Positions 1,017-20,639 of a stretch of DNA of 64,000 bases are shown one piece after another. This stretch comes from Escherichia coli (lineage in GTDB: Bacteria > Pseudomonadota > Gammaproteobacteria > Enterobacterales > Enterobacteriaceae), in NCBI RefSeq assembly GCF_003991155.1, contig NZ_CP031293.1; one strand, 5' to 3'. The position numbers and the translations under genes were made by a program. Each line of letters opens with the position of its first letter. The stretch's first letter is position 1. The notes under the pieces were generated by a model. The model did not search any database. It worked only from the letters and a program-made list of their open reading frames with translations, and was not told the DNA's origin.

Positions 1017-1056
1017 ATTCAAATAATTAATACAAAATCAATTCTGTATACTACTT

Positions 1057-2520: not shown

Positions 2521-2572
2521 AATTATCTCCCTGTTTTGGCAATAAGAAAGAAAAGGGCTTACGCCCTCTTCA

Positions 2573-3831: not shown

Positions 3832-4193
3832 ACAACATCATCCTTACCCAAAAAATAGGCAAATACTTCATCCACGCCTTTCATGGCGAGAACATCACTG
3901 AACAGCAAAATAGACGTCGCCAGATTTCCCGCTTCATCTGATGGTATAGACCTAAAGAACTCCATCACTTCATCTTCCTCATGGTATCGTGTCATCGCAT
4001 CAACTTTTATTTGCCATTCACCAATAGCAAAAAGCGCTGCTTCAAAGCAGGACTGAAATCGTTCTATATCAGGGCCAAAATGATACGTTATTCCGTCTTT
4101 ATATTTCGCAATGAAAATTTCAGTAATTTTTTCATTACTGCTCTGAAGAATATGAGTATCAATAGTAAAAACATAGGCCAGTTGTGCATTCAT
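3828..4193 (-). CDS. Hypothetical protein, first gene of a two-gene overlapping operon
   Basis: Clean 121-aa ORF with AT-rich upstream region; no recognisable motif. Confidence 0.4.
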   Translation of the reverse strand: MNAQLAYVFTIDTHILQSSNEKITEIFIAKYKDGITYHFGPDIERFQSCFEAALFAIGEWQIKVDAMTRYHEEDEVMEFFRSIPSDEAGNLATSILLFSDVLAMKGVDEVFAYFLGKDDVV

Positions 4194-4497
4194 TTTTTAT
4201 CTCCTTTGGTTATCGAATATTATATTTAACTATCACCAAAGAGAAATGACGTCAAATTAATAAAGTATTAGATATTACAATAGGATGTTAATCCTAAATC
4301 TACAACCGAAAATATCCCTTGTAATTATCCTTAATTTAAAATATTAAGTCATATGCACAATAATTAGTGATTCACCTAATCCAAAATCATCAGTAATTAA
4401 GTTATCAAATGATACACATTATTCTAAAACTTCTTTTATCTATATCCTCCAACGTTTACAATGCATGATAGGCAACGATTAATCATAAGAGGTAATT

Positions 4498-5376
4498 ATG
4501 AATATTTTTAGTCTCATCACTGATCCTGATAATGCAGTTTATTTGACTTTAGATAAATTTTATAAAAAAACGCATAGACATTATCCCTATATTCAAAAGG
4601 TTAATGGAGAAACTAAAGCATACGCTTTATGCCCAAGATGTCACAATCCGGTCCTTTTGGTTAATAGAATAAATAATCAGACGGAATCAAAAACTTTATA
4701 TGCTAAGCATGTTAAACATGATGTAATGGGTATCGCATCATATTCTCAACAAGGTTATGATGATTGCTCACTTGCAAACCCAACAAATCTTGATGCAAAA
4801 ATCAAAAGAGATATTAATAATAAATCAAATAATGAAATAAAAGATGCTGTTAAAAATTATTTCGATCTACTTATATACTCAATTGAATCACATATAGGCA
4901 TCAATTTTTCTGATTCCGTTTTAGCTCAAATGCTTGAGGATTTCAACGCTTGTGATGGACACCAGTATAGAGCGATTAACTTATATAATTTACCGTTATC
5001 ATTTGTCTACATCGCAAATGCTCAGGATCTTTACGGTTGTAGAGTAAACGGAAAAATCAAAGAAAATATAGATAAAAACTCAGAATCATTTATAACATCC
5101 GGTACAGAACTTTATGATAAGAGCCTGTATTATGTTAATAGAAAGAAAGGCAGTCCTTATAATAAAATCCTGTTTTATTTCTCTAATCATACCATTTCGA
5201 CAGAAAATGATGATGAATCGGTAATGTTATATATTGTAGAAAAAAAACAGGATCAGACTATAGATTCAGCAAAAATACTCTATAAAGAAAAAATATATTT
5301 TGATGGCACATATTTTTTTAATACTATGAAAAAAAGAGCACGGCTAAACGATTTAGCAAAATCAATTATTCAATAG
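4498..5376 (+). CDS. Hypothetical protein with Cys/His motif (CPRCHNPV ... HVKHD), possible zinc-ribbon or HNH-like
   Basis: 292-aa ORF, very AT-rich, Lys/Asn-rich; divergent from the 3526-4193 operon. Confidence 0.45.
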   Translation: MNIFSLITDPDNAVYLTLDKFYKKTHRHYPYIQKVNGETKAYALCPRCHNPVLLVNRINNQTESKTLYAKHVKHDVMGIASYSQQGYDDCSLANPTNLDAKIKRDINNKSNNEIKDAVKNYFDLLIYSIESHIGINFSDSVLAQMLEDFNACDGHQYRAINLYNLPLSFVYIANAQDLYGCRVNGKIKENIDKNSESFITSGTELYDKSLYYVNRKKGSPYNKILFYFSNHTISTENDDESVMLYIVEKKQDQTIDSAKILYKEKIYFDGTYFFNTMKKRARLNDLAKSIIQ

Positions 5377-5379
5377 TAT

Positions 5380-5688
5380 TTATTCTGGAATGCTAATTAT
5401 TTTTGATAACGGCTGGTTTAATACCAGCTTTATCAAGTCGATAGATATTGATGATGTATCAAATTGTTCCAACTCATACTCTGCAAAAGGTAAATCGCCG
5501 ACCACTTTTATATTCCCCATTATCTTTCCCAGAATATCACAAAATTCTTGATCTGTTTTTGGTTTTTCAATCAATCCTAAATCCAGTAACTTTTGATATT
5601 CAAATAATGCTCTAAGTGTTGCATTTTCCCAAAAAGTAAATTCCTGAAAATATGTTCCGTCTTCATATCTAGATTTTCTAAACTCCAT
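5380..5688 (-). CDS. Hypothetical protein
   Basis: 102-aa ORF convergent with 4498-5376; no recognisable motif. Confidence 0.35.
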   Translation of the reverse strand: MEFRKSRYEDGTYFQEFTFWENATLRALFEYQKLLDLGLIEKPKTDQEFCDILGKIMGNIKVVGDLPFAEYELEQFDTSSISIDLIKLVLNQPLSKIISIPE

Positions 5689-5989
5689 TATATCTCCTTA
5701 TGTTAATTATTATACATGGAGTAATACAATTATTCTCATCAGTCAAATCATAAAATTATAATAAATTCCATGAGTGGGTAAAGCTCAGTAGAAAAATAAA
5801 ATAGTGCAACGCATGTGATAGTATTTACTAACCAAAAACATCTGACACTCTCCGCGTTACTTATTTTTGCGCATTCGTGATTTTATTTTCACCTATCAAT
5901 TTTTAACTCTATTTTTCAATCTCAACCTGTGAATTGTGCAACACATAACACTCTCTGTTTTATTGGTTTTTTTCATCAAATTTAGCTAT

Positions 5990-6036
5990 CCCGCCTTACG
6001 GCGGGAATAATTAATACCTCTTTTGCCCTTACGGGC
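5990..6036 (+). other. Candidate oriT: two GC-stem hairpins sharing a TTAC loop
   Basis: cccgcc-ttac-ggcggg (5990-6005) and gccc-ttac-gggc (6025-6036), about 300 bp upstream of the relaxase gene; relaxase genes usually sit next to their oriT. Confidence 0.3.
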
Positions 6037-6337
6037 CTTTTCTTTACTCTTTTTGTCCTGTGGATGTGAAACCTACACCTTTAATCCAGTTTGCGCCGCT
6101 TATTCCGGCGTATTATTTTACAACAATACATATATTTCGTATTAATTGATAAGAGGGGCATTTTACATTGGCTTATTTTCTTAAAGACAATGCCCACCTA
6201 TACACTGCGTAGCAGTGTGTGGGGTCTACCGACGGTTGCCTGCCGCAGGCTAAAAGCAAAACCAAGGTCAACGTCAACCCCGAAGTTTTTCTGACGAAAA
6301 ACTAACAGCAGCATTTATATTTGAGGTTATATTTTTA

Positions 6338-7819
6338 ATGGCGATTTTTCATCTGGATTTTAAAATTGTGAAACGAAGCGAAGGCATGACTTCTGTTGCG
6401 AAAGCTGCCTACCATGCCCGTACACGTATTACGGATGATCGCATTGGAGAAACATTTGATTTCAGCCACAGAACAGATCTTCATGGTCATATTATATTGG
6501 CACCTGTTTCCGCACCCTCTCATATTGTTGAAAGCTCCTCAACACTCTGGAATGAAGTTGAAAGAGTGGAACGCCAGAACAATGGTCAAACAGCCCGTTA
6601 TTTTGATGTCGCTATCCCCGTAGAACTCAGTAATGATGACAAGAAAAAATTGGTTGCTGAATACTGCCAGAAGAACTTTGTTGATAAGGGAATGATTGCC
6701 GATATCGCATTTCATGATTTAGACGGTAAAAATCCCCATGCTCACGTTATGTTAACCCTGAAAACTGTTGGTCCCGAAGGCTTCGGTAAAAAAGACAGAA
6801 GCTGGAATGATAAGAAGATAATGATCCAATGGCGTGAGTCATGGGCCACGATGTCAAACAGCTACCTTGAAGCTATTGGAAGTGAAGAACGTATCGATCA
6901 CCGTTCTCTCAGGACGCAATGTGCTGATGCCCTTACCCAAGCAGAAGAAGCATTCAGCGCTGAAGAGAAAGCATTCTGGCTTGCCAAGGCAACAGAAACA
7001 AACCGCCCGGCAATGCAGCGTGTTCATCGTGCTAAATGGAATAACACCGAGTCTCAGGAACAGCGAGCTGCTGAACAAGCTCAACGCGATCATCAAATTG
7101 AGGAAGCAAAGAAGGTCTACACTACATTCAGTGAGCTACCACTGGAAATCGTGGTTGATGTTCGCTCTTACTCTGTTTACCAGCTTCCTGAACCGGAAGA
7201 GATCGTTCTCCCTGACTTCCCAGCTACAACTAAACAGCAACCTGTTTCAGCGACACCAGCCATAAGCAGAAGACCAGCAGCAAAATCTTACCGTGATCCC
7301 AGTAAGGTCAGTAAAGTAAATGTTTCAGGGAAGAAATCCCCTGTTCTGGTTGCGCCTGAACCAACTGCATCCACTAAATTGAAAACCCCATCTCTTCAAA
7401 AAACCAGAGCGATGAACCGCGCTCCTGTGAGGAGTAGGAAACAGACCAAGCCCCGCCAGAATGGTTTGTTTAAACGTTTCACGCTACTGATAGTAGGATA
7501 TATAAGAGAGAAATTTATCTGGGCCAAAAGGAAAGCAGATACCACTGATGCTGACCATGACAAGCGTATCGCAGAGAACTATATCTATGATGAAGTGCTG
7601 GGTGTCAATGTTCCACGTTCGGAGTTTGAAAAACGTACCAAATTTAACAATGGTGACTATAAATTAACACCTGATGAAATCAAGCGTTTCCCAAGCCGTC
7701 CTAATCAGGAACAGCCGGAAGTTAATAGAAGCATAGATCTCACACCTTCAATGCCACCAGAACACATGAGGCAAGGAAGCGCGCCAAAACTGAGTCCACC
7801 GAGCCATAAGAGACATTAA
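6338..7819 (+). CDS. mobA: MobA/MobL-family (MOBQ-type) conjugative relaxase
   Basis: N-terminus MAIFHLDFKIVKRSEG...AAYHARTRI parallels RSF1010 MobA (MAIYHL...), with the histidine triad region HAHVMLT and IDHRSLRTQ; C-terminal half is low-complexity. Confidence 0.8.
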   Translation: MAIFHLDFKIVKRSEGMTSVAKAAYHARTRITDDRIGETFDFSHRTDLHGHIILAPVSAPSHIVESSSTLWNEVERVERQNNGQTARYFDVAIPVELSNDDKKKLVAEYCQKNFVDKGMIADIAFHDLDGKNPHAHVMLTLKTVGPEGFGKKDRSWNDKKIMIQWRESWATMSNSYLEAIGSEERIDHRSLRTQCADALTQAEEAFSAEEKAFWLAKATETNRPAMQRVHRAKWNNTESQEQRAAEQAQRDHQIEEAKKVYTTFSELPLEIVVDVRSYSVYQLPEPEEIVLPDFPATTKQQPVSATPAISRRPAAKSYRDPSKVSKVNVSGKKSPVLVAPEPTASTKLKTPSLQKTRAMNRAPVRSRKQTKPRQNGLFKRFTLLIVGYIREKFIWAKRKADTTDADHDKRIAENYIYDEVLGVNVPRSEFEKRTKFNNGDYKLTPDEIKRFPSRPNQEQPEVNRSIDLTPSMPPEHMRQGSAPKLSPPSHKRH

Positions 7820-7897
7820 ATATAGAACATACTTTTTAATGATCTTAGTATCGTATATATTAAATACTCGGCGCATCATGTAGTTAGGGAGTTCATC

Positions 7898-8380
7898 TTG
7901 CCAACCATTAACGAAATAAAAGTAGAAGCAGTTAAATTTCGTAGATTAATTGAAAGTTGTGATAAAAAGAATACCAGCCTTGTTATAGACTGTTTTCCTG
8001 TTATGAGCTGTAAGCTTACCTCAATGCTTCTTTCTTACCATTTTCTGACACTATGGCCTGAATGTGAGCTAAAAGGAGTTAGCGCAGCTACCGGGAAAAA
8101 TAGTCAAATAACCCATTACTGGCTTGAGATAGATAATATTGTAGTTGATATAACAGGGGATCAATATAACATTATCAATGATAAGGAACTAAACAATAAA
8201 ATTATAAAAAACAGGCCATATCCTGCCATCCATGTCGTATATAAAGAAAGTAGTTATCTTTATAACTTATTCAAAATTCGAGATAAAGAACCTATTATAC
8301 ATGGATTTCCAACATTTAGTGAAGATTTTATTGAAGAAATGGAACTTGGATATAATCAACTATTCAACAGAAAAGAATGA
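7898..8380 (+). CDS. Hypothetical cytoplasmic protein (TTG start), first gene of a two-gene cassette
   Basis: 160-aa ORF; GGGAG RBS 6 nt before TTG; 59 bp before next gene. Confidence 0.4.
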   Translation: MPTINEIKVEAVKFRRLIESCDKKNTSLVIDCFPVMSCKLTSMLLSYHFLTLWPECELKGVSAATGKNSQITHYWLEIDNIVVDITGDQYNIINDKELNNKIIKNRPYPAIHVVYKESSYLYNLFKIRDKEPIIHGFPTFSEDFIEEMELGYNQLFNRKE

Positions 8381-8438
8381 AATAATAGTTAAAATATTAT
8401 ACCTTACTGGTATGAATCATTATACTTAGGAGTTAATC

Positions 8439-9011
8439 ATGACAATGGAAATACTTACAGCAATTCTTGTTATCATTACAGGAATTTATGCATTTTTGAC
8501 ATACAAGATGTCGAGAATAAGCGAACGAACAGCTCAGATAATGAATGAGCAAACCGAGGCAATGTCTCGTCCTTATATAATAATCCAGCCAATGGTAAGA
8601 CCTCACTCGCAATTCCTATACCTGAAAATTTATAATAGCGGTAAGACACCAGCCTTGAATGTAAAATTAGAATTAGATAAGGATTTTTATCAGTTCGATG
8701 AACCAACTAAAAACCTAAAAGAAACAAGTGTTTTTACATCAACTATTGATAGCTTAGCGCCCAATCAAGAGTTATTCTTCGCCCTTGGTCAAGGTTGGGT
8801 TATTTTTGGAGAATCCAAAAACCCTTTACCACAACAATTTACAATAACTGCAACGTATAGTTATATGAATAAAGAAGTTGTTGAAAAAAACAATATAGAC
8901 TTAAGCCCTTTCATGCAAAGTGAAGGTGAGAAAAATCCTATTGTTGAAGAGCTTGAAAGAATAAGAAAAACTCAAGAAAAATTGATGAAGGTATCTAACA
9001 AATCGATATAA
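8439..9011 (+). CDS. Hypothetical membrane-anchored protein (single N-terminal TM helix)
   Basis: N-terminus MTMEILTAILVIITGIYAFLTY is hydrophobic; GGAG RBS before ATG. Confidence 0.45.
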   Translation: MTMEILTAILVIITGIYAFLTYKMSRISERTAQIMNEQTEAMSRPYIIIQPMVRPHSQFLYLKIYNSGKTPALNVKLELDKDFYQFDEPTKNLKETSVFTSTIDSLAPNQELFFALGQGWVIFGESKNPLPQQFTITATYSYMNKEVVEKNNIDLSPFMQSEGEKNPIVEELERIRKTQEKLMKVSNKSI

Positions 9012-9048
9012 TAAAATATCATTCACCACATTAAATGAAATACAATTC

Positions 9049-9090
9049 ATGCCCCTTCTGTCACTTTCCACAGCGTAGCAGGGGCATTTT
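9049..9090 (+). terminator. Possible bidirectional terminator between convergent genes
   Basis: atgcccct ... aggggcat stem followed by tttt; loop is long (23 nt). Confidence 0.3.
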
Positions 9091-9104
9091 GATCCAGCAT
9101 CCTT

Positions 9105-9635
9105 TTAGTTAGCTTTCCAACCATTACTGGTCTTAACTAAATTCATGGCACTATCAGCAGGTTCATTCATCCCTTTAACGCTGGCGAAGGCTTTTTTGTC
9201 AATCCAGCCCGGAACGTCAACCAGCTTCCACGTATAAGTCACGCGAACTACTTTCTGATTACCGTTTCCCGGCTCAGTCCATTCCTTAATCTCGTCAACA
9301 GCACGACGACCAACACAGGCACCGTCTGTTGTGCTCCAGACTTTGGCTTTTTTGCCTTCCTCTGTTATCCCTAATACATTCGAATCATAACCCTGCTCAA
9401 AAACCATCAGGCCCTGCTCAATAAAACCATCGAGGATCACTGAATTCGTCCCTGTGCCAGTCGAATCAAGTCGTGGCTTGGCAAGACAGATGGGGAAGCT
9501 GGTGTTATTGTTATCCAGCGAGAAGCAGTATTTGTCTTGCCCAATCTTGGCATTAATCGCTTTCTCAAACTCACCTTTCTCACCACATCCCGCCAGTGTC
9601 AGAGTTGCGCCTACAACGAGTAAAATCTTCTTCAT
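9105..9635 (-). CDS. Hypothetical lipoprotein
   Basis: Signal peptide with lipobox MKKILLVVGATLTLAGC when started at ATG 9635. Confidence 0.5.
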   Translation of the reverse strand: MKKILLVVGATLTLAGCGEKGEFEKAINAKIGQDKYCFSLDNNNTSFPICLAKPRLDSTGTGTNSVILDGFIEQGLMVFEQGYDSNVLGITEEGKKAKVWSTTDGACVGRRAVDEIKEWTEPGNGNQKVVRVTYTWKLVDVPGWIDKKAFASVKGMNEPADSAMNLVKTSNGWKAN

Positions 9636-9780
9636 CTGCTTATCCATCCTGATAATCAAAATTGCGTATGTTTTTTGACCTAATCCGGTCAGGGCTAGAG
9701 TTGTTGCGGGATCCGGCTGATATCACATGGCAAAATCACCGCTTAACCAATTGATAGGATTCAATTCTTTTTGAGGCTCG

Positions 9781-9942
9781 TCATATCGTTTAAAACGATC
9801 AAAAACAACCATATGATAGTTTTTAACTATCATAAATTGATATTCGATCGATTATAACAATTAATAACCGATCGATATCGCGATTTCAATCGTTATAATC
9901 TATCAATAACTCATTATCGATCTTTTATATCGATCATTATTT
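9781..9942. repeat. Cluster of ATCGAT-containing motifs and a 9-bp-arm palindrome in a divergent intergenic region
   Basis: atgatagttTTTaactatcat (9822-9842) plus at least 5 ATCGAT/GATCGAT motifs within about 170 bp. Confidence 0.4.
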
Positions 9943-10054
9943 CAAGTTCTGATAGCCTTGCAACGCCGAGACCGACGCCATGAGTTTGGTGCAGTAGGAC
10001 GTATAAAACGAAGCAAAGCTCTGTGAGCGGGTTCAGTCTCTTTAACTCATTTAC

Positions 10055-10543
10055 ATGGAGGAAGTAAGAGTGGAAGCAACAAGTATCGTTTTTTTAGTGG
10101 TGCTCTTCGTCATTATCATGACCGCAGCAGTTATACAGAAGAAAAAGCACTACAACAGCTTTACGGAAGTTCTGGACGGCGACATTATTTCGTATGAATG
10201 CCAGCAGACAGGTATTGTAATTGATACTCAAAAACATACTGTCCGTATTTTCAATAAAGATAAAGACAGCACATATACTTTTGATGAAATCCGGGAAATA
10301 AATTATACGCTTTCAGAGGGTGGTAAGTTTTACGGCAATGGAACATTACGAGGTATGAATAATGCGGCTATTGCTAACTGGAGAGAACAACTTTCAGCGA
10401 ATAAACGGTCTGGCCTAAATATTTTAACCGATGATATTAAAAATCCCATGTGGAAAGTTAATGTTCCCCTGAAAAATAAAAGCACTTCAAATCACGAACT
10501 TTGTGAGCGATGGATGCTGGTATTTAAAAAGTATGTTTTCTGA
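10055..10543 (+). CDS. Hypothetical membrane-anchored protein (start may be GTG at 10070)
   Basis: N-terminal hydrophobic segment SIVFLVVLFVIIMTAAVI; GGAGG 8 nt before in-frame GTG. Confidence 0.4.
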   Translation: MEEVRVEATSIVFLVVLFVIIMTAAVIQKKKHYNSFTEVLDGDIISYECQQTGIVIDTQKHTVRIFNKDKDSTYTFDEIREINYTLSEGGKFYGNGTLRGMNNAAIANWREQLSANKRSGLNILTDDIKNPMWKVNVPLKNKSTSNHELCERWMLVFKKYVF

Positions 10544-10574
10544 GTCTCACCTTTCATCTATTTATGGAACAAAA

Positions 10575-10952
10575 ATGAAAAAATTATTACTTGCTATTTT
10601 TATCATATTACCACTTGGTGGCTGTACGGTTCATGGTAATAAATCCCTAACTGATGAAAATCATCAAACGGTTAAATTAAAAATCGTCAAGGGGAAAACT
10701 ACCCAACAAGAAATTCTTGCTGCCTTTGGAGAGCCTCAGACACGCGCTACGAATGATGGGCAGGAGATGTGGAACTACTCAAGTATGACGGGAGAAAGCC
10801 AACTATCTAACTACATACCGGGCCTTGCTCTATTGACCAATAGCAGCACGGCACACATTAAATCACTGGATATCTGGTTTAAGGGTGATGTTGTGGAACG
10901 TTATGATTTTCGTCAGACTGCAAGTAAGACATCTCGTGGCCTGCTTGATTAA
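10575..10952 (+). CDS. Lipoprotein, possibly BamE/SmpA-OmlA-like
   Basis: MKKLLLAIFIILPLGGC lipobox; mature part has a pattern reminiscent of small OM lipoproteins (VKLKIVKGKTTQQEILAAFGEP). Confidence 0.45.
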   Translation: MKKLLLAIFIILPLGGCTVHGNKSLTDENHQTVKLKIVKGKTTQQEILAAFGEPQTRATNDGQEMWNYSSMTGESQLSNYIPGLALLTNSSTAHIKSLDIWFKGDVVERYDFRQTASKTSRGLLD

Positions 10953-10966
10953 TATGTGTATATATA

Positions 10967-10992
10967 GGCCACAAATAGTTGTGGCCCTTTTC
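10967..10992 (+). terminator. Intrinsic terminator
   Basis: ggccacaa-atag-ttgtggcc perfect 8-bp stem followed by cttttcc. Confidence 0.5.
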
Positions 10993-11001
10993 CGTTATCA
11001 T

Positions 11002-11613
11002 CTATTTTTGTTTATATAAATCGTAGGAACTTAATTTTTTAGATTTCTCATAGGCATTTTCAATGTATAAAGATACATCTGCTAAAAATCGGTCTTCTTC
11101 TATCAATGAAATATAAGAACCAGTCAATTGATCATATGATTTGCACTCAGGGCAACAATATTTATCTTCTGAAGTTAAATTAAACCTATTATTATTAATA
11201 ATGTCATATAGTTCAGTTGTGTCAATAGTTCTTGATGAACATCCATCAGGCTTGATTGAAGAAGATACTAACCAGTCATAGCTATTATTAACCTTCATTA
11301 TCACACCAACAATGCCATTAGTTCGGGAAGTGGTTCCTCCTCTCTTGTATTCTTTCAATGCATATTCAATTTCCCAGTCAATCCATTTACTTTTAATCAT
11401 ATTCGGGGAAATAATAACGATTAAAACAGATGTCCCGAAAATCATATTTTTAAGATTGTTCTTTATATTATCTACTGTTGTATTACTTATATCAGGAGAC
11501 TCCGATGTTTCCCCTTTATAGTAAACAGCATCATCACCTAATGCCTTGACAATTTTGTCTCTTAAATCCTGTGCTTCACTATATTTATATGATATGAATG
11601 TTTCATGAGCCAT
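11002..11613 (-). CDS. thsB: Thoeris ThsB, TIR-domain protein
   Basis: N-terminal ETFISYKYSEAQ and WIDWEIEYAL are typical TIR-domain signatures; 16 bp downstream of thsA on the same strand. Confidence 0.8.
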   Translation of the reverse strand: MAHETFISYKYSEAQDLRDKIVKALGDDAVYYKGETSESPDISNTTVDNIKNNLKNMIFGTSVLIVIISPNMIKSKWIDWEIEYALKEYKRGGTTSRTNGIVGVIMKVNNSYDWLVSSSIKPDGCSSRTIDTTELYDIINNNRFNLTSEDKYCCPECKSYDQLTGSYISLIEEDRFLADVSLYIENAYEKSKKLSSYDLYKQK

Positions 11614-11629
11614 AACTTCACCTAATATA

Positions 11630-13066
11630 TTATTTATTCAGTTTGTTTATGATTTTTATTACAACTTCTATTGTTTTTTTTACCGAAAAATCTTTTTCAG
11701 TAAGCTCAGACAAATCATTATATATCCATTCATTACTTCCATAATATTTCTTAGGATCTTGTGATATTTGTTCAAATATATATTTAGACATATACCCGGT
11801 ATTGGGTAAAGGAATTGGTACAAGGCCATGTTGAACAGCAATCTCAAACTCTCTAAATACTCCCCTAGCATTTACTATATCATTATTTTCCTCTTGTTTA
11901 TTTCCAAAAATAAACAATGCAATACCACCAAGAGGAATCATTCTCTGTCTATACTCCTCCCAAAGTTCTTGAATATCTTTCCCCTTACTGACAGTTTGTG
12001 GAAATGGTCTAACAATGAGCTGTTCTTCTGATAATTTATCTGGCCTACTATAAATTGCATCCAACGCACCATTTATCACAGAACTTCCGACGCCCCATCC
12101 AAATCCATTCACTATCCTATAATTATTCTTTATAATCTCATATGCTAATGTGTGAATAAAATCTAATGCTTTAGGTCTTTCAAGATCCCCATATTTTTCT
12201 GCACTACCAGAAATAAATATCGTTTTCTTTTTAAATGATTGCTCTATCTTAGCTAGAATTTTAGGGATGTCAGAATATTCATCTATTAATAATACTTGTA
12301 TACCAAATCTCTTGAGATCATCGATTCGCAGTTTTTGTTTTCTGATCTTATAATTTACTGTTTCTTCATCATCTAGGGAATTATTAGCCTCATTCTTCAT
12401 AAAGCAATAGTGTGTCCTCTTGTCCCCAGAATGAGTATACAAACGACTCAAAATGTAATCCAGATTTGGGTCGGTAAAACTAAACCCTATGAATAGAAAG
12501 GTTTTTGATATTAAATCTCCGCTAAGTGCGGTGATAAATGAAGCGTGTGTTCTGTAGTATTTTTCATACTGCTCTTTATATAAAATAGCCTTGGATGGGG
12601 ACGAAATATCACCATGCATTTTATATACTATCGCGTCTCGCTTAGGTCGTGTTGTATTTAAATCATCTATGTTTCTTTTTACATCTGCAATTTTGTAAAC
12701 TTTCCGCAGACTATCTTCAATTAAAGTGTCATAGTTTGTTGTCCAAAATGTCTTAATCGGTAAACGAGCAATTATATTATGAACCTCTGATGGCTCGGCT
12801 TGCTCAGAAAACTCTTCGATTATCTTCCTTGTGAGTTTTGTAGCCCCTTTCTTTTCATTAACATGAAATTGAGCAAGCGATATTAGATCGTCTTCTTTAT
12901 TAATGTCTAAACTAAGCTCTTCTGCTATATCGCTAAGTAATTCTTTCCAATCAACATAACCTTGACTTTTAGACATTCCTGCGCCAGAAAAAATAGCAGC
13001 ACAATCATTTTCAAGATCTTTAACAAAATCTTTTATGAAAACTTCAATTTCATTACTAAACGTCAT
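11630..13066 (-). CDS. thsA: Thoeris ThsA, SIR2 (NAD-binding) plus SLOG domain protein
   Basis: From ATG at 13066 (GGAG RBS 9 nt upstream) the protein MTFSNEIEVFIKDF...AAIFSGAGMS...TTNYD...MHGD (SIR2) then IFISGSA...GFGWGVGSSVINGALD (SLOG) closely parallels Bacillus cereus ThsA as I recall it. Confidence 0.85.
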   Translation of the reverse strand: MTFSNEIEVFIKDFVKDLENDCAAIFSGAGMSKSQGYVDWKELLSDIAEELSLDINKEDDLISLAQFHVNEKKGATKLTRKIIEEFSEQAEPSEVHNIIARLPIKTFWTTNYDTLIEDSLRKVYKIADVKRNIDDLNTTRPKRDAIVYKMHGDISSPSKAILYKEQYEKYYRTHASFITALSGDLISKTFLFIGFSFTDPNLDYILSRLYTHSGDKRTHYCFMKNEANNSLDDEETVNYKIRKQKLRIDDLKRFGIQVLLIDEYSDIPKILAKIEQSFKKKTIFISGSAEKYGDLERPKALDFIHTLAYEIIKNNYRIVNGFGWGVGSSVINGALDAIYSRPDKLSEEQLIVRPFPQTVSKGKDIQELWEEYRQRMIPLGGIALFIFGNKQEENNDIVNARGVFREFEIAVQHGLVPIPLPNTGYMSKYIFEQISQDPKKYYGSNEWIYNDLSELTEKDFSVKKTIEVVIKIINKLNK

Positions 13067-13274
13067 TACACTTATCTCCATTTTAACTATTATTCCCAAA
13101 AGTAGAGAATAAACCTTTCAACCGGAGTTCATGAAACAGCATCTAAAAATATTCTGCCGGATACGAGTAAAATCATACTGGATATAAAAACAGTTGTCGA
13201 GAACTAAAACAATTGAAAACATGGCCAGATGGCATAGATAATATTACATACGAAAATTATTAACCAGATAATAT

Positions 13275-14237
13275 TCACGATGGTGATGTTTCATCGGACA
13301 TCCTTACATTATAAAGAAAAACCAGATGCATATTTACATCATTTCTTTTCTTAAAATAGCTATAACGCTGGAGGCTCAGCCATTTTGATGTTGCCAATAC
13401 GTATGGGCAGCCCTCCTTCCTGCTGGCACAACTTCTTAATGGATTGCCACTCCGCTTTTCAGACTCCATGTGAGAAGTGAGCGAATCAAAAGCACCGTCG
13501 GCTACGACGATGGTAGGTTCTTCATCTGTTTCATTGCCGATCGACTCCGTATTTGTGCTTTCAGCACGTTCTTCTTCCAGTTCAGCCAGACTCGCTTTCA
13601 GCTCATCAAGGCTGCTGGCTGCGTCTTTTGGTGCATAGAAGAACAGCCCGCTAATGAAGATGGCTTCCATAACCTCTCTAAAAGAAAACGAGGTATCGCC
13701 ATAAACAAAGCAACTGTGCTTGGAACTCTTCACACCCGATACGTTTTTCTTCAGCAAACCGTCTTTCGGTGAAGTCATTAATGTCTGTTTGCTATAGAGG
13801 ATTACAGGAAGATTTTTAATTTGTTGAACATCGCCGCTGATACTCCAGCGTTCTTTATCTCCTTTGATAAAGCCGGAAGCATCACAGCTACTTTCTATGT
13901 CAAACTCATCAGTCGGGAAGCGCTCGCGATTAAAATAGGTCGAAAAATCCTCCCCTTCTTCCATATCCTGACGCTTGTAAGCGCGATAAACCGAGCTTCG
14001 ACGGTCAATTCCGATCCATTCAATATCCCATGCCGTTGGCCCGGACGGTTTTCTTACCTCATCTATATAAGCACCAACATCTCTGTCCAGATAAGCTGCT
14101 AACAAAGCCTTCCATGGTTCTATTGCCAGAAAGATACTTGCCAGCGTTGTTCCTTCTTCAATCAGAACGGTATGGTGGAAGAACCGGAGAAGAAAGAACG
14201 GATCGGTATTGGCTATGACGTTCTGGATGGATAGCAA
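13275..14237 (-). CDS. Hypothetical protein with acidic central region
   Basis: 320-aa ORF immediately upstream of thsA; no recognisable domain. Confidence 0.35.
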   Translation of the reverse strand: MLSIQNVIANTDPFFLLRFFHHTVLIEEGTTLASIFLAIEPWKALLAAYLDRDVGAYIDEVRKPSGPTAWDIEWIGIDRRSSVYRAYKRQDMEEGEDFSTYFNRERFPTDEFDIESSCDASGFIKGDKERWSISGDVQQIKNLPVILYSKQTLMTSPKDGLLKKNVSGVKSSKHSCFVYGDTSFSFREVMEAIFISGLFFYAPKDAASSLDELKASLAELEEERAESTNTESIGNETDEEPTIVVADGAFDSLTSHMESEKRSGNPLRSCASRKEGCPYVLATSKWLSLQRYSYFKKRNDVNMHLVFLYNVRMSDETSPS

Positions 14238-14369
14238 TGGAACGGCAGCGGTTTCATCGTAATTGGATTGAAACCGTAGTATTGCATCGGAACAAAAATT
14301 AACTTACCTTCCATTGCTCATCCTTCTCCTGTAGTTATCAGACTAAATATTTTACCAGATCATAGGTTA

Positions 14370-14756
14370 TTATCGCATTTTGCTTTTTACTGATTCATAT
14401 TCGTTGGTGTGATCCTTAAAAGTGCTTATTGCTTTGGGCAATGACCTGTTAAATAAACCATTAATCTCCTGTGATGCTTTTCCGTTTCTGACAACCATAA
14501 TATATCCAAGAGTCAGATCTTGTCTTATCATTGGATTCAATGATTCTATACCTATGCTAATCCCCGTATTTTTGTATTTAGCAACCGGATACCCAACTGA
14601 ACTATGGATAACAATATTGCCGCTATCTGCAAGCCTTGATAACATTCTGTCGCTGTATATCGATTTTCTTAAATCCTCTAAAACAGGGATATAGTGTTTA
14701 TCCATTGTTCCTGTTAAAGTTGTAGGTATATAGATCTTTGTTTTTATTTTTAGCAT
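14370..14756 (-). CDS. Hypothetical protein
   Basis: 128-aa ORF, same strand as and upstream of 13275-14237. Confidence 0.35.
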   Translation of the reverse strand: MLKIKTKIYIPTTLTGTMDKHYIPVLEDLRKSIYSDRMLSRLADSGNIVIHSSVGYPVAKYKNTGISIGIESLNPMIRQDLTLGYIMVVRNGKASQEINGLFNRSLPKAISTFKDHTNEYESVKSKMR

Positions 14757-14883
14757 GATATTTTCCTGTTATTGTTTTTATTTAATACCATGCAACTGAT
14801 CGTAATATCAAAGATATTTATTATGTTCAATATAACTTTTAAAACATCTGCGATTTTATAGTTTCTTCACTCATCTGTGTGAG

Positions 14884-15108
14884 TTATGAAACCAAACGAA
14901 TATAAATATTTTTCAACCTGTCTTTATCACAACGACTTACAGACTCTGATAACAGATAATGACTATAATTATTGACACAAATATTGTTGCCGTTTTCAAG
15001 GGTTAATTTCAATCCAAGTTCTGTATCTTCAACTTTGTTTATAATACAGATCATAAATGGTGTTTTGTCATGTGGATGGAAGAGTGTGATCATTTTGATA
15101 TTGTTCAT
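14884..15108 (-). CDS. Hypothetical small protein (doubtful)
   Basis: 74-aa ORF in AT-rich DNA; no RBS assessment possible. Confidence 0.2.
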   Translation of the reverse strand: MNNIKMITLFHPHDKTPFMICIINKVEDTELGLKLTLENGNNICVNNYSHYLLSESVSRCDKDRLKNIYIRLVS

Positions 15109-15436
15109 TGTGTTTGTCCTTTTTTATTTATTACTGGTTAATACTCTATCGCAAGTGTAAAAATCAAATATATTTTCATTTATTAATGATTTTACTTCTT
15201 ATTATTAAACTTCTTTTTGAAAAGATTTTTATCTCTGTGCTTATGCACGGCTACGCCCTAAAACTGACATTTTGTATTTTATTTTACTACTATGAGGTAA
15301 TAAGTGAATGTATTCGATCATAGTCAGATCTATTTTCCTTTTAACTTTTAATTCGGTTCCTATGTTTGAACATAGCATTCCTCCTCTGACATATAGCATT
15401 TGCTCTTAAATGTATAGGAAAACTATATCTTTAGTA

Positions 15437-15474
15437 GCAGCACTTCGTGATTGTTGCCAACAATCACTTTGCTG
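15437..15474. repeat. 38-bp repeat containing a perfect palindrome gtgattgttg-c-caacaatcac (copy 1)
   Basis: Direct reading of the sequence; 10-bp arms. Confidence 0.6.
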
Positions 15475-15576
15475 AACAGGGCTTGTCCCTGTTAATTATG
15501 GATTTATCCAAAAAAAGATCGCGTCGAAGACGCATATAAAGTAAAAGGAAAATTAATTAAGCTCTCACAGTAAATG

Positions 15577-15614
15577 CAGCGGTTCGTGATTGTATGCAAC
15601 AATCACTTCGCTGT
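15577..15614. repeat. 38-bp repeat, copy 2 (gtgattgt-atgca-acaatcac), about 85 percent identical to copy 1
   Basis: Direct reading; 140 bp from copy 1 in an ORF-free stretch. Confidence 0.6.
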
Positions 15615-15835
15615 AATAACATAGTAAGGAAGATAAAGTTCAATAACGTTAGTAGGTGCCATTTATATAAGACACCAATCAACTAAAAAGAAGAACTGTT
15701 TTCTATATTTCATCCTTTTAAACGTCATCCAAAGCTTCGCTATTTGAATAATGAAGAAGAAAAATGCTCTCAAGCCAGTTATAGCTTAAAACAAAGTACG
15801 CACTCTCGGGAGTTAAAGTCCCGAATCCCGGTACT

Positions 15836-15854
15836 TAAGATGATAATCATTATC
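15836..15854. promoter_or_regulatory. Fur-box-like palindrome
   Basis: taagatgataatcattatc matches the 19-bp Fur consensus GATAATGATAATCATTATC at 16/19; core tgataatcattatca is a perfect 7-1-7 palindrome; about 170 bp upstream of gene 16023. Confidence 0.4.
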
Positions 15855-16022
15855 AATAATAAAAAATAATACAGCTCCTATTTTTACTTATTTCAGAACT
15901 TGAAGTTTTTAATAACCAAACTTCAAGTATTATTATTTTTATAAAAACTGCACTTAAAATATTGACTAACTAAAAATAGTACGTTATCTACTTTATATAA
16001 AAAGAATAAAGGGGAAAGTATT

Positions 16023-16568
16023 ATGTTAGATAATAAAATAAAAAAATCAAGAAGAGGTCTACCTCGCCATGTAAAAAACCCATTCCTTAATGATACAAAT
16101 ATACATACAAAAACAGGTATCAGACGTATCACAACAGGAAAAGATCGCTTAGCCGTAGTAAATGAAAATACAGGAGAACAGGTTGGGCATGGTGGTTTCT
16201 TTCAGTCAATGGAAGTAGACAAGACACAGTTCGTGAAGCTTTATGTGGATGGCGTATCAGCTATTGAGGGTTTATCCTCATCCGGTAAGAAAGTATTTAA
16301 GATACTGTATCTTGCTATTAGAGACAATAAAGATACAGATACGATATTAATGTCATTCGATATTGTTGATCAAGAGATTGTAAAAATATCAAGAACGACA
16401 TATTTCAAAGGGATGAAAGAACTTGCTGACAAGAAATTTATTGCTGAGACCATGATACAGAACTATTATTTTATTAATCCAGACTATATGTTTAATGGTG
16501 ATCGTTTAACTTTCATGAAAACTTATTACTTGAAGGGTAAAAAGAAAACAGCGAATAATAAAAATTAA
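16023..16568 (+). CDS. Hypothetical basic protein, possibly DNA-binding
   Basis: 181-aa ORF with AAAGGGGAAAG RBS-like region upstream; weak resemblance to small replication/DNA-binding proteins, not verified. Confidence 0.35.
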   Translation: MLDNKIKKSRRGLPRHVKNPFLNDTNIHTKTGIRRITTGKDRLAVVNENTGEQVGHGGFFQSMEVDKTQFVKLYVDGVSAIEGLSSSGKKVFKILYLAIRDNKDTDTILMSFDIVDQEIVKISRTTYFKGMKELADKKFIAETMIQNYYFINPDYMFNGDRLTFMKTYYLKGKKKTANNKN

Positions 16569-16722
16569 TTACCAACGGGAAAACAGGTTAAAAAATCGCC
16601 GTAATAAACTACGATTACATTAAAGGTATTTTCTTGCCAAGAGAGAAACATCACCAATTTGACACCTGAACCATATCTCGTAATATAAATATATCAACCA
16701 TTTTATTTACGAGGTATTTCTT

Positions 16723-17202
16723 ATGAGAAAAGTAAAAACAGACAACAGTGATTTAATCGAATACGTAAATACAGTTAAAGAACTAAAAAATCACATTCCA
16801 ATAGAAGAATACAGAAATGAATATCGTAAACTGCGTTCCGATGATATTCCATTGGTTAAAGCTCAGAAATTTAAATCTGCCCATACCGAACTTCGCAGAC
16901 TTGAAAAAAAGAGAGAGTCTCTTATTGAATACTTTATTGACGAGTTAAATCCCATCAGCAGTTCAAAAGCTAACACATCAGCGAGATCAACTAGTAATCT
17001 CGATTTATTTAACGAACGCGTGTTATACCGTAAGGCTATTTCAGAAAAGAGTGATGAAGAAATAGTAGCCTTGGTCATAAAACAACGCACAGAAGCCGCT
17101 GTTGAGTTCCAACGTTCAATTGAACATAGTCTTGAGCAACTATCTCGTATCTCGTCAGAGTTCGAACCAGCAAGCCAAAAGCGCAGGAAAATGTCTCTTT
17201 AA
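16723..17202 (+). CDS. Hypothetical protein
   Basis: 159-aa ORF, charged and coiled-coil-like. Confidence 0.35.
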   Translation: MRKVKTDNSDLIEYVNTVKELKNHIPIEEYRNEYRKLRSDDIPLVKAQKFKSAHTELRRLEKKRESLIEYFIDELNPISSSKANTSARSTSNLDLFNERVLYRKAISEKSDEEIVALVIKQRTEAAVEFQRSIEHSLEQLSRISSEFEPASQKRRKMSL

Positions 17203-17359
17203 AACGACTCTATGCTATTCGTGTGAAATGTGATGTATTAGATTGCTTATGCAATAATGTTTACTATATTATTTACTGACTGTTTTTTTTGATTTTTCCA
17301 ACAGCACCGTAAGCATTATTTTTATTAATCGCCTATTTTAAAACACCGGATGACATACT

Positions 17360-17764
17360 ATGAGTGAAGCTCTCAAGGCACTGAACAATATTCGTACACT
17401 TCGCGCACATGCTCGTGAAACAGATCTGACAACTCTGGAAGAGATGCTGGAAAAGCTCTCTGCTGTCGTTGAAGATCGCCGTGAGGAAGAAAATTCAGCC
17501 CGTAAAGAACAAGAAGAACGTCAGGCTAAACTGGAAGCCTTCCGCCAGAAATTGTTAGAAGACGGTATCGATCCTACAGAACTACTCGCTGCTGTTAGTT
17601 CATCCCAGCCTAAAGCCAAATCAACTCGTGCTCCTCGTCCTGCTAAATACAAATATACAGATGAAAACGGTAATGAGCAGACTTGGACGGGTCAGGGCCG
17701 TACTCCTAAAGCAATCGCCGCTGCTATCGAAGCTGGTAAGACACTGGAAGACTTTGCAATCTAA
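17360..17764 (+). CDS. H-NS family nucleoid-associated protein (island-encoded paralogue)
   Basis: [20 protein letters not shown]...[25 protein letters not shown] aligns closely with E. coli H-NS, including the DNA-binding TWTGQGRTP motif. Confidence 0.85.
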
Positions 17765-17827
17765 CCGCTACAGCATATCCGGGCTTCACTGTTCTCAAGA
17801 TAACAGGCCCGGAAAATATTCGATTTT

Positions 17828-18208
17828 TCATCCAAGGCTATCCCAGTCTGGCAGGTTGTTAACGACCTTTCGCCACCAATGATACGCAGCCATAAGAACA
17901 CCAAAACAAATACCTGCGACGACGCTTGAGACAAATGCAGTGCCCGGTTGTATCCCTGTATCCTTCCAAGTAAAAAACCACATACAGATCCCCCATGCCG
18001 GACCAAACCATCCACCCATCAACAAAGTGATTTGCCAGAATGAGGCAAAAGGTAGCGGTGGTATCTTGAGTCCAGCTTTCCATGCGAGGTGTAGCAAAGG
18101 AGGGGCATAATTACTTCGCCACATCTTCTTGCTTTCCATGATGGCAATAGCGTGTTTCTTTTTAGCTTCAAAGCCCATACGGTTCCCTCCAGCTCCACCT
18201 TTACTCAT
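17828..18208 (-). CDS. Hypothetical inner-membrane protein
   Basis: 126-aa ORF with two or more hydrophobic, Trp-rich segments. Confidence 0.4.
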   Translation of the reverse strand: MSKGGAGGNRMGFEAKKKHAIAIMESKKMWRSNYAPPLLHLAWKAGLKIPPLPFASFWQITLLMGGWFGPAWGICMWFFTWKDTGIQPGTAFVSSVVAGICFGVLMAAYHWWRKVVNNLPDWDSLG

Positions 18209-18282
18209 CTATCGATAAAAAGCCACAATAGACAATAATGATTATCAATTCCATGTATGTAAGTCAAAAATAACTCAAATAG

Positions 18283-18525
18283 TCATTCCTTTAGATCTTC
18301 TGGCGAAACCCGGTCACATGCCATTTTCTCAAGCATTCTTTGTAATCTTTTCATTTTCAACTTACGCGCTTTTTTCTCACCAATCTCCTGATAGTATTCT
18401 TCACGACGTTCGTTGACCACGCTCCTGAAATTTTTCAAAAGCTGTTCAAGTGTTTTGATGTCAGTAGTTGCGGCTTCCGCTTGGATTTTTTTATACATAT
18501 ACATCACATGAAATTCATCGATCAT
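18283..18525 (-). CDS. hnsT: Truncated H-NS-like protein (H-NST-like, oligomerisation domain only)
   Basis: 80-aa protein with TLEQLLKNFRSVVNERREE matching the H-NS N-terminal dimerisation region but no DNA-binding domain. Confidence 0.6.
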   Translation of the reverse strand: MIDEFHVMYMYKKIQAEAATTDIKTLEQLLKNFRSVVNERREEYYQEIGEKKARKLKMKRLQRMLEKMACDRVSPEDLKE

Positions 18526-18598
18526 TTTTTAGCTCCTTGAATAGACAAATAATATTTGTTATCAGCCCCAAGAAGGGGCCGATAGACACCAGAACATA

Positions 18599-18895
18599 TC
18601 AACATATTGATTCCGCCAGAACCGTATAATGCATTTTGGCTAATGCCTGCTTAACCCCCTTAAAATCCACCTCAGATAGTTTTTCAGCCGCGTTCTTTTT
18701 CCATGCTTTTTTCAGAAGATGTTTCTCCGCATTTCTCATCGCCAGATCGATTAGCCTACAGACAAACTCATGATCCATTACATGCGTTATAATCATATTA
18801 CTGGTCGTTTTATCCTTTGAGTTAAAAAGCTCCGCGTAGATATGCAAGGACACAACATAAAAGATTTCAGTATTTTTATTTTTAAATGTATTCAT
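18599..18895 (-). CDS. Hypothetical protein
   Basis: ORF 18599..18955; likely start MNTFKNK at 18895. Confidence 0.3.
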   Translation of the reverse strand: MNTFKNKNTEIFYVVSLHIYAELFNSKDKTTSNMIITHVMDHEFVCRLIDLAMRNAEKHLLKKAWKKNAAEKLSEVDFKGVKQALAKMHYTVLAESIC

Positions 18896-18939
18896 TGGCT
18901 TTTCCTTTTGGTTAATATTAAAAATGAAATGCTGTAGCA

Positions 18940-19242
18940 TTAGCGGTATACACACTTATAGACAATCCAAAGCTGACGAAGGTGTTGTTTTACCTTACTG
19001 TGGCTTACTTCTCCATAAATCCGATTCCTTTGGTCTTCTTCTGTGTCATCATAAAAATGATATCTCGTTTTTTTAATGATACTTTCCATAATGTCATTCA
19101 TATTGTATTTATTGTTGAGAAAATAATAAAAATCATCTGGTGCATTCCTCTGCAATTCGTCCATATAGTTCCTAAAATAACATTCGGCTTGTTCAATAAA
19201 CTGTTTTGTCGTAATAAGTTCTATCTTCATATTCTTCTCCAT
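18940..19242 (-). CDS. Hypothetical protein
   Basis: 100-aa ORF. Confidence 0.3.
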   Translation of the reverse strand: MEKNMKIELITTKQFIEQAECYFRNYMDELQRNAPDDFYYFLNNKYNMNDIMESIIKKTRYHFYDDTEEDQRNRIYGEVSHSKVKQHLRQLWIVYKCVYR

Positions 19243-19311
19243 TATTATTTAGGATAATAAAATGCCCTGTGCGAACAGTTATCTGTTCGACACGAGATCT
19301 TGTTTCTGTTT

Positions 19312-19530
19312 TTATGCAGCGTTCTGGCGTGAGTTTCGAATAGTCGTTTCAATCCATTCATCAATCTCACTTTCAACAAAAGCAACACACCTCGGACCTA
19401 TTTTTACTCTGTCAGGAAAGTTTCCTTCCTTAATACGCTCATATAAAGTCGTGCGACTGAATCCCACTCGATTTAAAACATCAGGAACGCGGATAAATCG
19501 TTTTACGCTGGTTTCAATATTTTCTTTCAT
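19312..19530 (-). CDS. alpA: AlpA-family phage regulatory protein (MerR-like HTH)
   Basis: IRVPDVLNRVGFSRTTLYERIKEGNFPDRVKIGPRCVAFVESEIDEWI matches the AlpA pattern; AGAGGA RBS 6 nt before ATG 19530. Confidence 0.7.
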   Translation of the reverse strand: MKENIETSVKRFIRVPDVLNRVGFSRTTLYERIKEGNFPDRVKIGPRCVAFVESEIDEWIETTIRNSRQNAA

Positions 19531-19745
19531 TGTCTGTCCTCTATTATTGTAAGTAATCTCTATGAGATTTCGCTTTTCTCTATGTTGTTTCGACGTGAAC
19601 AATGATAGCGATTTTGCTTATGGTAATTTAGGGACGTTCAAAGAAGTTTTTTTTGAAAAATTCGAAGGGGCACGGATGGAAAGATAACGGTTAACACTGG
19701 ATGAGATCACGTTCGCTCGGAGCGAACGTAACCCTTTTACTTGGC

Positions 19746-20639
19746 TTATTTTTTCTTATTCCTGTCGTCTTCTACATGCTTTTCAACAGGGGAGTCTTTC
19801 AAGTGGTTGTTTTCCATCATGTAATCTTCAAGCGATTTCAGATAGCTCGCATCCGTCAGAAAAGCCATTGCTAACGGGTAGTCCGTTGCCTTTAGCATTC
19901 CTTCATCACGATCGTTGTCGCTGTCCTCGTGAAGCAGCGAAGAAATCAGTGAAAGCGGGATTTTAATGCCGTTATCTTCTCCCCAGAAGATCAGGTCCAT
20001 CATCGGGATAAGACGATATTCAATGATTTTTCTGAATGTGCTTTTGCCGAAACGATACTCTCTTGGCGCTGGAGACTTCATCTTAAGCTGTCTCTTCCAT
20101 TGAGGGATCAGCACTTTCAGATGTTCAATGATTTCTTCAGTTGATGCCTCTTCCAGATGAATATCGACAGTAATGCGTGAAAGATTATTAAGGGATGTTT
20201 CTTTTAGATACTCGGACAGAAATTCGGATTCGCTTAACGCGGAAAGCTCAGGCGTGGCTTCGGTTAATGCCAGCGTTTTCGCATAAAATTGCGCGTGGCT
20301 TCGTGTCGTAGGATTTACCGCGTAGGTTCTGGCAAGCTCATGTCCAAGGGTAGCGGTATCACCACTGAAAAAGATTTCACCGCTGAGGATCTTGTTGCGG
20401 TAATCATCCAGCATTAATCGGTTAAAGGTAGGTATGGTGTTCCGGCTCAACAACATTCTGTAAGCCAAGATACGCCGCTCAACCTCAACATAAAACTGCT
20501 GTAAGGTGAGTTTCTCTATCGCCTCATATCGTTCCACATCAAACCATGCTTCCAGTGCTTTCCTGATTTCACTTCTTTTCATCCATCCTCCAACAATCCA
20601 TTTCCTTTGATATATCTTCACAGGATCCGTTTGGAACAA
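19746..20639 (-). CDS. Hypothetical protein occupying the position next to tRNA-Ser where an integrase would be expected
   Basis: 297-aa ORF, no tyrosine- or serine-recombinase motifs recognisable; same orientation as alpA. Confidence 0.4.
   Translation of the reverse strand: MFQTDPVKIYQRKWIVGGWMKRSEIRKALEAWFDVERYEAIEKLTLQQFYVEVERRILAYRMLLSRNTIPTFNRLMLDDYRNKILSGEIFFSGDTATLGHELARTYAVNPTTRSHAQFYAKTLALTEATPELSALSESEFLSEYLKETSLNNLSRITVDIHLEEASTEEIIEHLKVLIPQWKRQLKMKSPAPREYRFGKSTFRKIIEYRLIPMMDLIFWGEDNGIKIPLSLISSLLHEDSDNDRDEGMLKATDYPLAMAFLTDASYLKSLEDYMMENNHLKDSPVEKHVEDDRNKKK

Follow-up and report, generated by a model that had tools for sequence, protein, structure and literature searches.

A predicted type I Thoeris anti-phage system carried as a cassette in the serU mobilizable island of Escherichia coli

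Two neighbouring genes on an E. coli chromosome, labelled 'SIR2 family protein' and 'TIR domain-containing protein' by RefSeq, raise the question of whether they form a Thoeris anti-phage defence system and, if so, what kind of element carries it. The stretch that was analysed, here called the window, comprises 64,000 nucleotides. In the ORF list, the minus strand between 11002 and 13099 is taken up by two back-to-back reading frames, both of which are intact. RefSeq assigns its two labels to exactly the intervals given for thsA and thsB in Table 1; this annotation was taken from E. coli AR Bank #0349 (NZ_CP041996.1), which is 99.99% identical to the window over 33.3 kb. We conclude that the pair very probably constitutes a functional type I (SIR2-SLOG) Thoeris abortive-infection system, present as a self-contained 2.4-kb cassette in a slot of the serU island, and the two RefSeq labels can safely be replaced by ThsA and ThsB (type I Thoeris).

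Table 1. Positions in the window of the predicted Thoeris genes, their flanks, the variable segments of the island and its integration site.
Feature	Position	Strand	Content and basis
serU integrative mobilizable island	1..20860	.	RefSeq annotation of the 99.99%-identical genome; backbone/cargo map
Variable cargo segment	325-1054		Backbone alignment
Variable cargo segment	3833-5798		Backbone alignment
Variable cargo segment	7652-9104		Backbone alignment
Variable cargo segment holding thsAB	10955-13363		Backbone alignment; upstream boundary 13363/13364
Downstream end of the thsAB cassette	10955..11001	.	Hairpin between the convergent thsB and lipoprotein genes
thsB	11002..11613	-	203 aa; PADLOC, Pfam, PDB, AF2/Foldseek
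thsA-thsB spacer	11614..11629	-	16 bp; sequence read directly
thsA	11630..13066	-	478 aa; PADLOC, Pfam, PDB alignment
Upstream non-coding part of the thsAB cassette	13067..13363	-	thsA Shine-Dalgarno sequence and best sigma-70-like site
Variable cargo segment	14407-14838		Backbone alignment
tRNA-Ser (CGA), serU, integration site	20861..20950	-	ARAGORN

The product of the first gene, ThsA, matches the PADLOC model for ThsA (PDLC00407) from end to end with an E-value of 8.2e-203. Pfam places a SIR2_2 domain at residues 106-232 (3.1e-29) and a STALD (SLOG) domain at residues 266-475 (2.4e-71), the latter covering the whole model. The signatures by which the earlier note had recognized the two domains are all present: AAIFSGAGMS at residue 23, TTNYD at 109 and MHGD at 150 in the SIR2 part, (IF)ISGSA at 285 and GFGWGVGS at 321 in the SLOG part. 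Among solved structures, ThsA matches E. coli ThsA (8WC0; PMC12700824) at 8e-191, B. cereus ThsA (BcThsA, 6LHX) at 7e-136 and S. equi ThsA (7UXT) at 1e-107. No macro domain was matched in ThsA by PADLOC or Pfam, such as would mark the TM-macro ThsA of Thoeris type II.

The alignment to BcThsA allowed the functional residues to be compared one by one. N112 and H152 of BcThsA are needed for NADase activity, and the N112A mutation also abolishes defence (PMC7272460); N111 and H151 of the present ThsA are identical to them. S288, F357, R371 and E403, which line the SLOG ligand pocket of BcThsA (PMC7272460), correspond to identical residues S286, F355, R373 and E406, and R371, K388 and E403, which co-ordinate 3'cADPR (PMC10022894), to identical residues R373, K390 and E406. 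The signal-binding residues of the SLOG/STALD domain also include S286-G287-S288. Every residue shown by experiment to matter in BcThsA is thus kept.

The second product, ThsB, matches the PADLOC ThsB model (PDLC00428) at 2.6e-85 and the Pfam families ThsB_TIR (1e-11), TIR_2 (3.2e-6) and TIR (6e-4), in agreement with the TIR identity that the earlier note had read from its motifs. Profile searches with Pfam and PADLOC had been named there as the check, and the SIR2, SLOG and TIR matches all lie far beyond chance; the reading of the pair as a Thoeris operon made of a SIR2-SLOG ThsA and a single TIR ThsB is borne out by the two PADLOC models. With phmmer the sole relative of ThsB in the PDB at sequence level is 9VYL (3.4e-18), ThsB1 of B. 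dafuensis (BdThsB1), released as 'BdThsB1 with NAD'. With 25 homologues as input, AlphaFold2 gave a model with a pLDDT of 75 (moderate confidence) and a pTM of 0.78, and Foldseek matched this model to 9VYL over its whole length (E 4e-11, TM 0.78), followed by EcThsB (8WCF), MyD88, SARM1 and other TIR domains. ThsB contains the motif W77-I-D-W-E81-I, which we take to be the W-x-x-x-E catalytic-glutamate motif of TIR NADases such as SARM1 and ThsB. E81 is invariant in the 25 homologues (63-90% identity) and, by motif and invariance, is the putative catalytic glutamate. The C-terminal half (about residues 100-172) forms a beta-rich extension in which C125, C154 and C157 are invariant among the same homologues. 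The 203-aa family is large, with 2,332 matches at E ≤ 1e-5, and an identity of 63-90% is maintained across Enterobacterales, Flavobacteriia and Cupriavidus.

The two genes also stay together outside E. coli. Three distant contexts were examined, and in each of them thsB is directly preceded, on its own strand, by a gene of 477-479 aa with SIR2_2 and STALD domains. In Flavobacterium seoulense an extra TIR_2 gene precedes thsA, in Cupriavidus pauculus thsB is followed by an Abi_C gene, and the third context is a Serratia-like island. Since the pairing is kept in each of them, the pair is a conserved functional unit rather than a chance juxtaposition. The features that define type I Thoeris are found together at this locus, namely a SIR2 domain with its Asn and His, the SLOG residues, an adjacent TIR protein ThsB with a putative catalytic glutamate, and a conserved, co-oriented pairing.

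The type I system of B. cereus MSX-D12 (6LHX, 6LHY) has the same full-length SIR2-SLOG ThsA, with pocket and catalytic residues kept, and the same order of thsA then thsB on one strand, but BcThsB (6LHY) belongs to another TIR subfamily: there is no sequence match to our ThsB at E ≤ 0.01, and the fold match is weak (E 0.037, TM 0.39). The closest solved ThsA, 8WC0, comes from the same species and aligns over residues 2-476 with roughly 70% identity as judged by eye, whereas its partner EcThsB (8WCF, 160 aa) is only 17% identical to the present ThsB (TM 0.51). Because ThsA is close to 8WC0 while ThsB is far from 8WCF, the effector has been conserved and the sensor swapped, a small illustration of ThsB modularity. 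The closest solved ThsB is instead the ThsB1/TIR1 protein of B. dafuensis FJAT-25496 (9VYL). The match extends over the C-terminal extension, at 26% identity; the B. dafuensis operon has two ThsBs, whereas there is one here. We assign ThsB to the B. dafuensis ThsB1/TIR1 type and not to the type that is paired with the crystallized E. coli ThsA. In B. dafuensis, TIR1 activates a SIR2-SLOG ThsA and sets the phage range of defence (bioRxiv 10.1101/2021.01.06.425286). The phages recognized through thsAB are probably not the same as those recognized by the other E. coli system.

If the system works like its homologues, phage infection would activate the TIR protein ThsB, which would convert NAD+ to a cyclic ADP-ribose isomer (3'cADPR). 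Binding of 3'cADPR to the SLOG pocket of ThsA would switch on the SIR2 NADase, and the ensuing depletion of NAD+ would kill or arrest the infected cell before phage progeny are released; ThsB would determine which phages are sensed. We infer the identity of the signal as 3'cADPR, the depletion of NAD+, the protection against phage and the expression of thsAB from the characterized systems. A gene pair with a toxic NADase on a mobile element could also serve mainly as an addiction module that stabilizes the island, the NADase being held in check, and indeed ThsA has basal NADase activity and its SLOG mutants are constitutively toxic (PMC10022894). We consider this very unlikely, since ThsB activates ThsA and does not neutralize it, so that the locus lacks an antitoxin-like logic; moreover, sister islands persist without the cassette, and homologous systems protect against phage (PMC7272460; bioRxiv 10.1101/2021.01.06.425286).

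The layout of the operon is compact. As the earlier note had it, thsA and thsB lie on the same strand, 16 bp apart, and the spacer accommodates an AGGTGA Shine-Dalgarno sequence 4 nt before the thsB ATG. For thsA, a TTG codon 33 nt upstream of the ATG at 13066 offers an alternative start, which is less likely because a GGAG Shine-Dalgarno sequence is placed 9 nt ahead of the ATG. The best sigma-70-like site upstream of thsA is TCGACA-17-TATGAT at 13200-13172, a match to the consensus only. As a scan of the region found 15 promoter-like sites with 13.8 expected from shuffled sequence, the promoter call for thsAB is weak. Downstream, an 8-bp, GC-rich hairpin (10967-10986) separates the convergent thsB and lipoprotein genes; its T-tract is found on the plus strand only and is absent from the thsAB coding strand, so that termination of thsAB at this hairpin is uncertain.

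The operon has a GC content of 32.1%, lower than that of the island (37.4%) and of the window (47%), which points to a foreign origin of the cassette. The low value also bears on whether an intact operon is in use. The island contains two genes of the hns family, and a recently acquired AT-rich cassette might be kept silent or inactive in its host by H-NS or by these island paralogues, so that the host would ordinarily gain no protection from phage; in view of the GC content and the two paralogues, the cassette may be repressed under laboratory conditions. The promoter prediction, no better than background, and the backbone gene adjoining the cassette, which is already a pseudogene, would fit such silencing. 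On the other hand, 48 genomes carry both reading frames unbroken and with no functional residue lost, and the conservation of ThsB from Enterobacterales to Flavobacteriia described above indicates that purifying selection on the family is strong across phyla. A high AT content is common among defence genes and does not keep them from being active. An inactive operon is therefore unlikely in our judgement, and H-NS silencing would in any case leave the identity of the system unchanged.

Those 48 genomes were found among 5,426 complete E. coli genomes (about 1%) and carry the operon at an identity of at least 99.6% with both reading frames intact, always on the chromosome and in one copy each. 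Megablast against the plasmid collection and blastn against the phage collection gave no match to the operon. The carrier strains were isolated from humans, cattle, poultry, pigs, dogs and wastewater, and may resist some therapeutic phages. No mention of the protein accessions of the operon was found in the literature searched.

What, then, carries the cassette? The window begins within the integrase gene of the island, and the full element, of about 21.9 kb, lies between zinT and mtfA. Its ends are delimited by a 14-bp direct repeat: the 3'-terminal 14 bp of the tRNA (TGGCGGAGAGAGGG) recur as an exact copy 178 bp upstream of int, beyond the edge of the window (positions 8026 and 29962 of sequence L001). 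Island-free genomes match the window only from 20852/20861 rightwards. This is the case for most genomes, which match from the tRNA rightwards only, while 548 of the 5,426 carry some of the island backbone. According to the RefSeq annotation this backbone encodes a tyrosine integrase, PilV, a type IV pilin, a TraD-like protein, a MobQ relaxase and RepL, together with lipoproteins/DUF4755, the two H-NS paralogues, an HTH protein and DUF6387; the annotation shows no conjugation machinery of the island's own. With an integrase, a tRNA attachment site with its repeat, a relaxase, no full conjugation apparatus and a sporadic distribution among strains, the island is classified on its gene content as an integrative mobilizable element (IME) at tRNA-Ser. 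The earlier description of thsAB as cargo of an AT-rich mobilizable island accordingly holds, from the GC content to the integrase, relaxase and tRNA-Ser site.

The site has been described before under two names. In Hochhauser et al. (2023) it appears as defence hotspot #17 (mtfA-zinT, tRNA-Ser CGA), where the 23.4-kb sister element of ATCC 25922 is classed as an IME carrying Thoeris_II (PMC10121019). Site and element class are thus the same as here. Among the table entries examined, those for this hotspot name Thoeris_II, and the one Thoeris_I entry lies in a prophage at hotspot #18. In older literature the element is the 'serU pathogenicity island' (PMC5521745), a name that the sister island owes to the TIR protein TcpC. 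One of these relatives is that of CFT073, which shares the island backbone and the same tRNA-Ser site, and in which a TM-macro Thoeris system has been described: EcThsA (AAN80859), EcThsB1, which is TcpC (AAN80857, 307 aa), and EcThsB2 (AAN80858) (PMC11204291). The corresponding PADLOC matches were obtained in the sister island L002. The CFT073 system differs from thsAB in its TM-macro effector, in having two ThsBs and in occupying another slot, after mobQ; moreover, the TM-macro ThsA binds ligands of the ADPR/imidazole-ADPR type and not 3'cADPR (PMC11204291). We considered presenting TcpC as a ThsB as a new observation and rejected this, as CFT073 EcThsB1 has already been published (PMC11204291) and a full-length PADLOC model exists.

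The reputation of TcpC invites the suggestion that ThsB, too, is mainly a host-directed virulence factor that interferes with TLR/MyD88 signalling, as claimed for TcpC, and not a phage sensor. Beyond the fame of the sister island as a pathogenicity island (PMC5521745), the present locus lends this little credit. With 203 aa and without a separate N-terminal domain, ThsB belongs to another family than TcpC, and its translation is linked to that of a SIR2-SLOG effector. Environmental Flavobacteriia and Cupriavidus have it as well, in each case beside thsA. The carriers include strains from wastewater, cattle, poultry and pigs as well as from humans, and even TcpC now counts as EcThsB1 of a Thoeris system (PMC11204291). 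We regard a virulence role as the most improbable of the alternatives, with hardly any weight beside a role in phage sensing.

When the window is aligned with the CFT073-type island (L002), backbone and cargo can be told apart, and five variable segments emerge (Table 1). One of these is filled exactly by thsAB, the boundaries of the 2.4-kb cassette coinciding with the operon; the neighbouring backbone gene is the pseudogene referred to above. In other E. coli the same slot holds different genes: a 390-aa ComEA-HhH protein in most of the records listed, a DUF4238 protein in E2348/69, a DUF2971 protein matching the PADLOC candidate PDC-S31 (5e-15), or two hypothetical genes. The DUF4238 protein of E2348/69 gave no match in PADLOC v2.0; DefenseFinder has a system named 'Rst_DUF4238'. 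In 187 genomes, compared with 48 that have thsAB, the slot after mobQ is taken up by tcpC together with another TIR gene and a gene for a macro-domain protein. In the Serratia-like relative of the island, Septu (PtuA 3e-291, PtuB 7e-128) lies directly upstream of thsAB, and DRT5 (2e-236) occupies the mobQ-side slot.

These comparisons also decide how far the genes around thsAB can be called a likely defence island, as the earlier note had proposed. Across the sister islands, where the variable slots hold Thoeris II, Septu, DRT5 and PDC-S31, the proposal is sound, but for this copy it finds little support: PADLOC gave no convincing match to other known defence genes among 20 other island proteins scanned. 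As defence systems accumulate only across sister islands, the label fits the island family and not the neighbouring genes here. A marginal mad1 match (8e-4) on a 72-aa HTH protein was discounted.

In itself thsAB is an ordinary member of an already-known family, called automatically by standard tools at a published hotspot, and beyond annotation its significance is small. The carrier is of mild interest, in that what has long been known in ExPEC as the 'serU pathogenicity island' is a mobilizable element in which the anti-phage cargo of the slots is exchanged. The present copy has Thoeris I; CFT073-type strains have TM-macro Thoeris together with TcpC, and the Serratia-like relative has Septu and DRT5. 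We speculate, with some reserve, that the serU IME could carry defence in modular form, with uncharacterized defence genes in its variable slots, and that an EcThsA-like effector joined to a BdThsB1-like sensor may confer an uncharacterized coliphage range; both are possible rather than likely. The foremost candidates would be two unannotated genes at 7898-8380 and 8439-9011, in the slot where sister islands carry TM-macro Thoeris or DRT5. Neither gave a significant match in Pfam, NCBIfam or PADLOC. Homologues of the 190-aa slot protein have no conserved partner and occur as stand-alone accessory genes near TA modules, transposases and integrases.

The Serratia-like relative of the island (L009/L010) has backbone genes in common with the window island (DUF4755, lipoproteins), and its ThsB is 90% identical to that of the window. 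Septu (PtuA/PtuB) lies immediately upstream of its thsAB and a DRT5 reverse transcriptase occupies the other slot; the serU island family therefore stacks defence systems.

The features discussed here are collected in the table. The slot that in the window carries the 160-aa and 190-aa genes is the place of the CFT073 TM-macro Thoeris or of DRT5 in sister islands. Neither slot protein has a significant match in Pfam, NCBIfam or PADLOC. The 190-aa family comprises 136 homologues (identity at least about 48%), whose range extends from Enterobacterales and Vibrio as far as Rhodocyclaceae and Blastocatellia and which are stand-alone genes with TA modules, transposases and integrases as neighbours. 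The two genes are found as a pair in 70 E. coli genomes.

Features of the serU and asnT islands and of related loci
Feature	Coordinates	Strand	Remark
Unannotated gene, 160 aa	window 7898-8380	+	cargo slot directly after mobQ
Unannotated gene, 190 aa, N-terminal TM helix	window 8439-9011	+	cargo slot directly after mobQ
Backbone gene, 320 aa	window 13275-14314	-	adjoins thsA; pseudogene per RefSeq
Second island	window 21942-64000		at tRNA-Asn
tRNA-Asn (asnT)	window 21942-22017		
tcpC, second TIR gene and macro-domain gene	L002 10354-12891		sister serU island, CFT073 type
Alternative contents of the window 10955-13363 slot	L002 15163-16335, L003 2131-3153, L004 2138-2776, L005 2288-3428		other E. 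coli

TcpC is traditionally viewed as a virulence factor that subverts TLR signalling. With PADLOC, the tcpC trio of the CFT073-type sister island (L002), which also comprises another TIR gene and one for a macro-domain protein, scores as ThsB (3e-210), ThsB2 (7e-91) and Macro-ThsA (4e-128), and it is present in 187 of the 5,426 complete E. coli genomes. The same three genes have already been published as the CFT073 Thoeris system (EcThsB1, EcThsB2 and EcThsA), in a paper from which the name TcpC is absent (PMC11204291).

The thsAB slot also has other occupants. In most of the listed records it holds a 390-aa protein whose C-terminus has a ComEA-type HhH, and in E2348/69 a DUF4238 protein; neither of these matches any of the PADLOC v2.0 models. 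Further occupants are a DUF2971 protein matching the PADLOC candidate PDC-S31 (5e-15) and a pair of small hypothetical genes. Compared with the CFT073-type copy, which is intact, the 320-aa backbone gene adjoining thsA carries a frameshift close to its 3' end; the two copies are 83% identical over the first ~258 residues and diverge thereafter. A family search with the product of this gene gave no match.

The window's ThsB (window 11002-11613) shares a C-terminal β-rich extension (residues about 100-172) with BdThsB1, the closest solved relative (Bacillus dafuensis, PDB 9VYL). Within this extension D123, C125, C154 and C157 are invariant in the family, and we suggest that these residues might bind a metal or serve as a sensor element.

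The asnT island encodes an integrase and has a fragment of relE; its insertion sequences include an IS3 element and ISEc1, and it also contains a DUF4225 gene. Its type VI secretion cluster (58-60% GC) is complete, and there are genes for Hcp/VgrG/PAAR-like and Rhs effectors, accompanied by the immunity gene imm11. In CFT073-type strains, by contrast, the tRNA-Asn site is occupied by the yersiniabactin HPI in place of this T6SS island.
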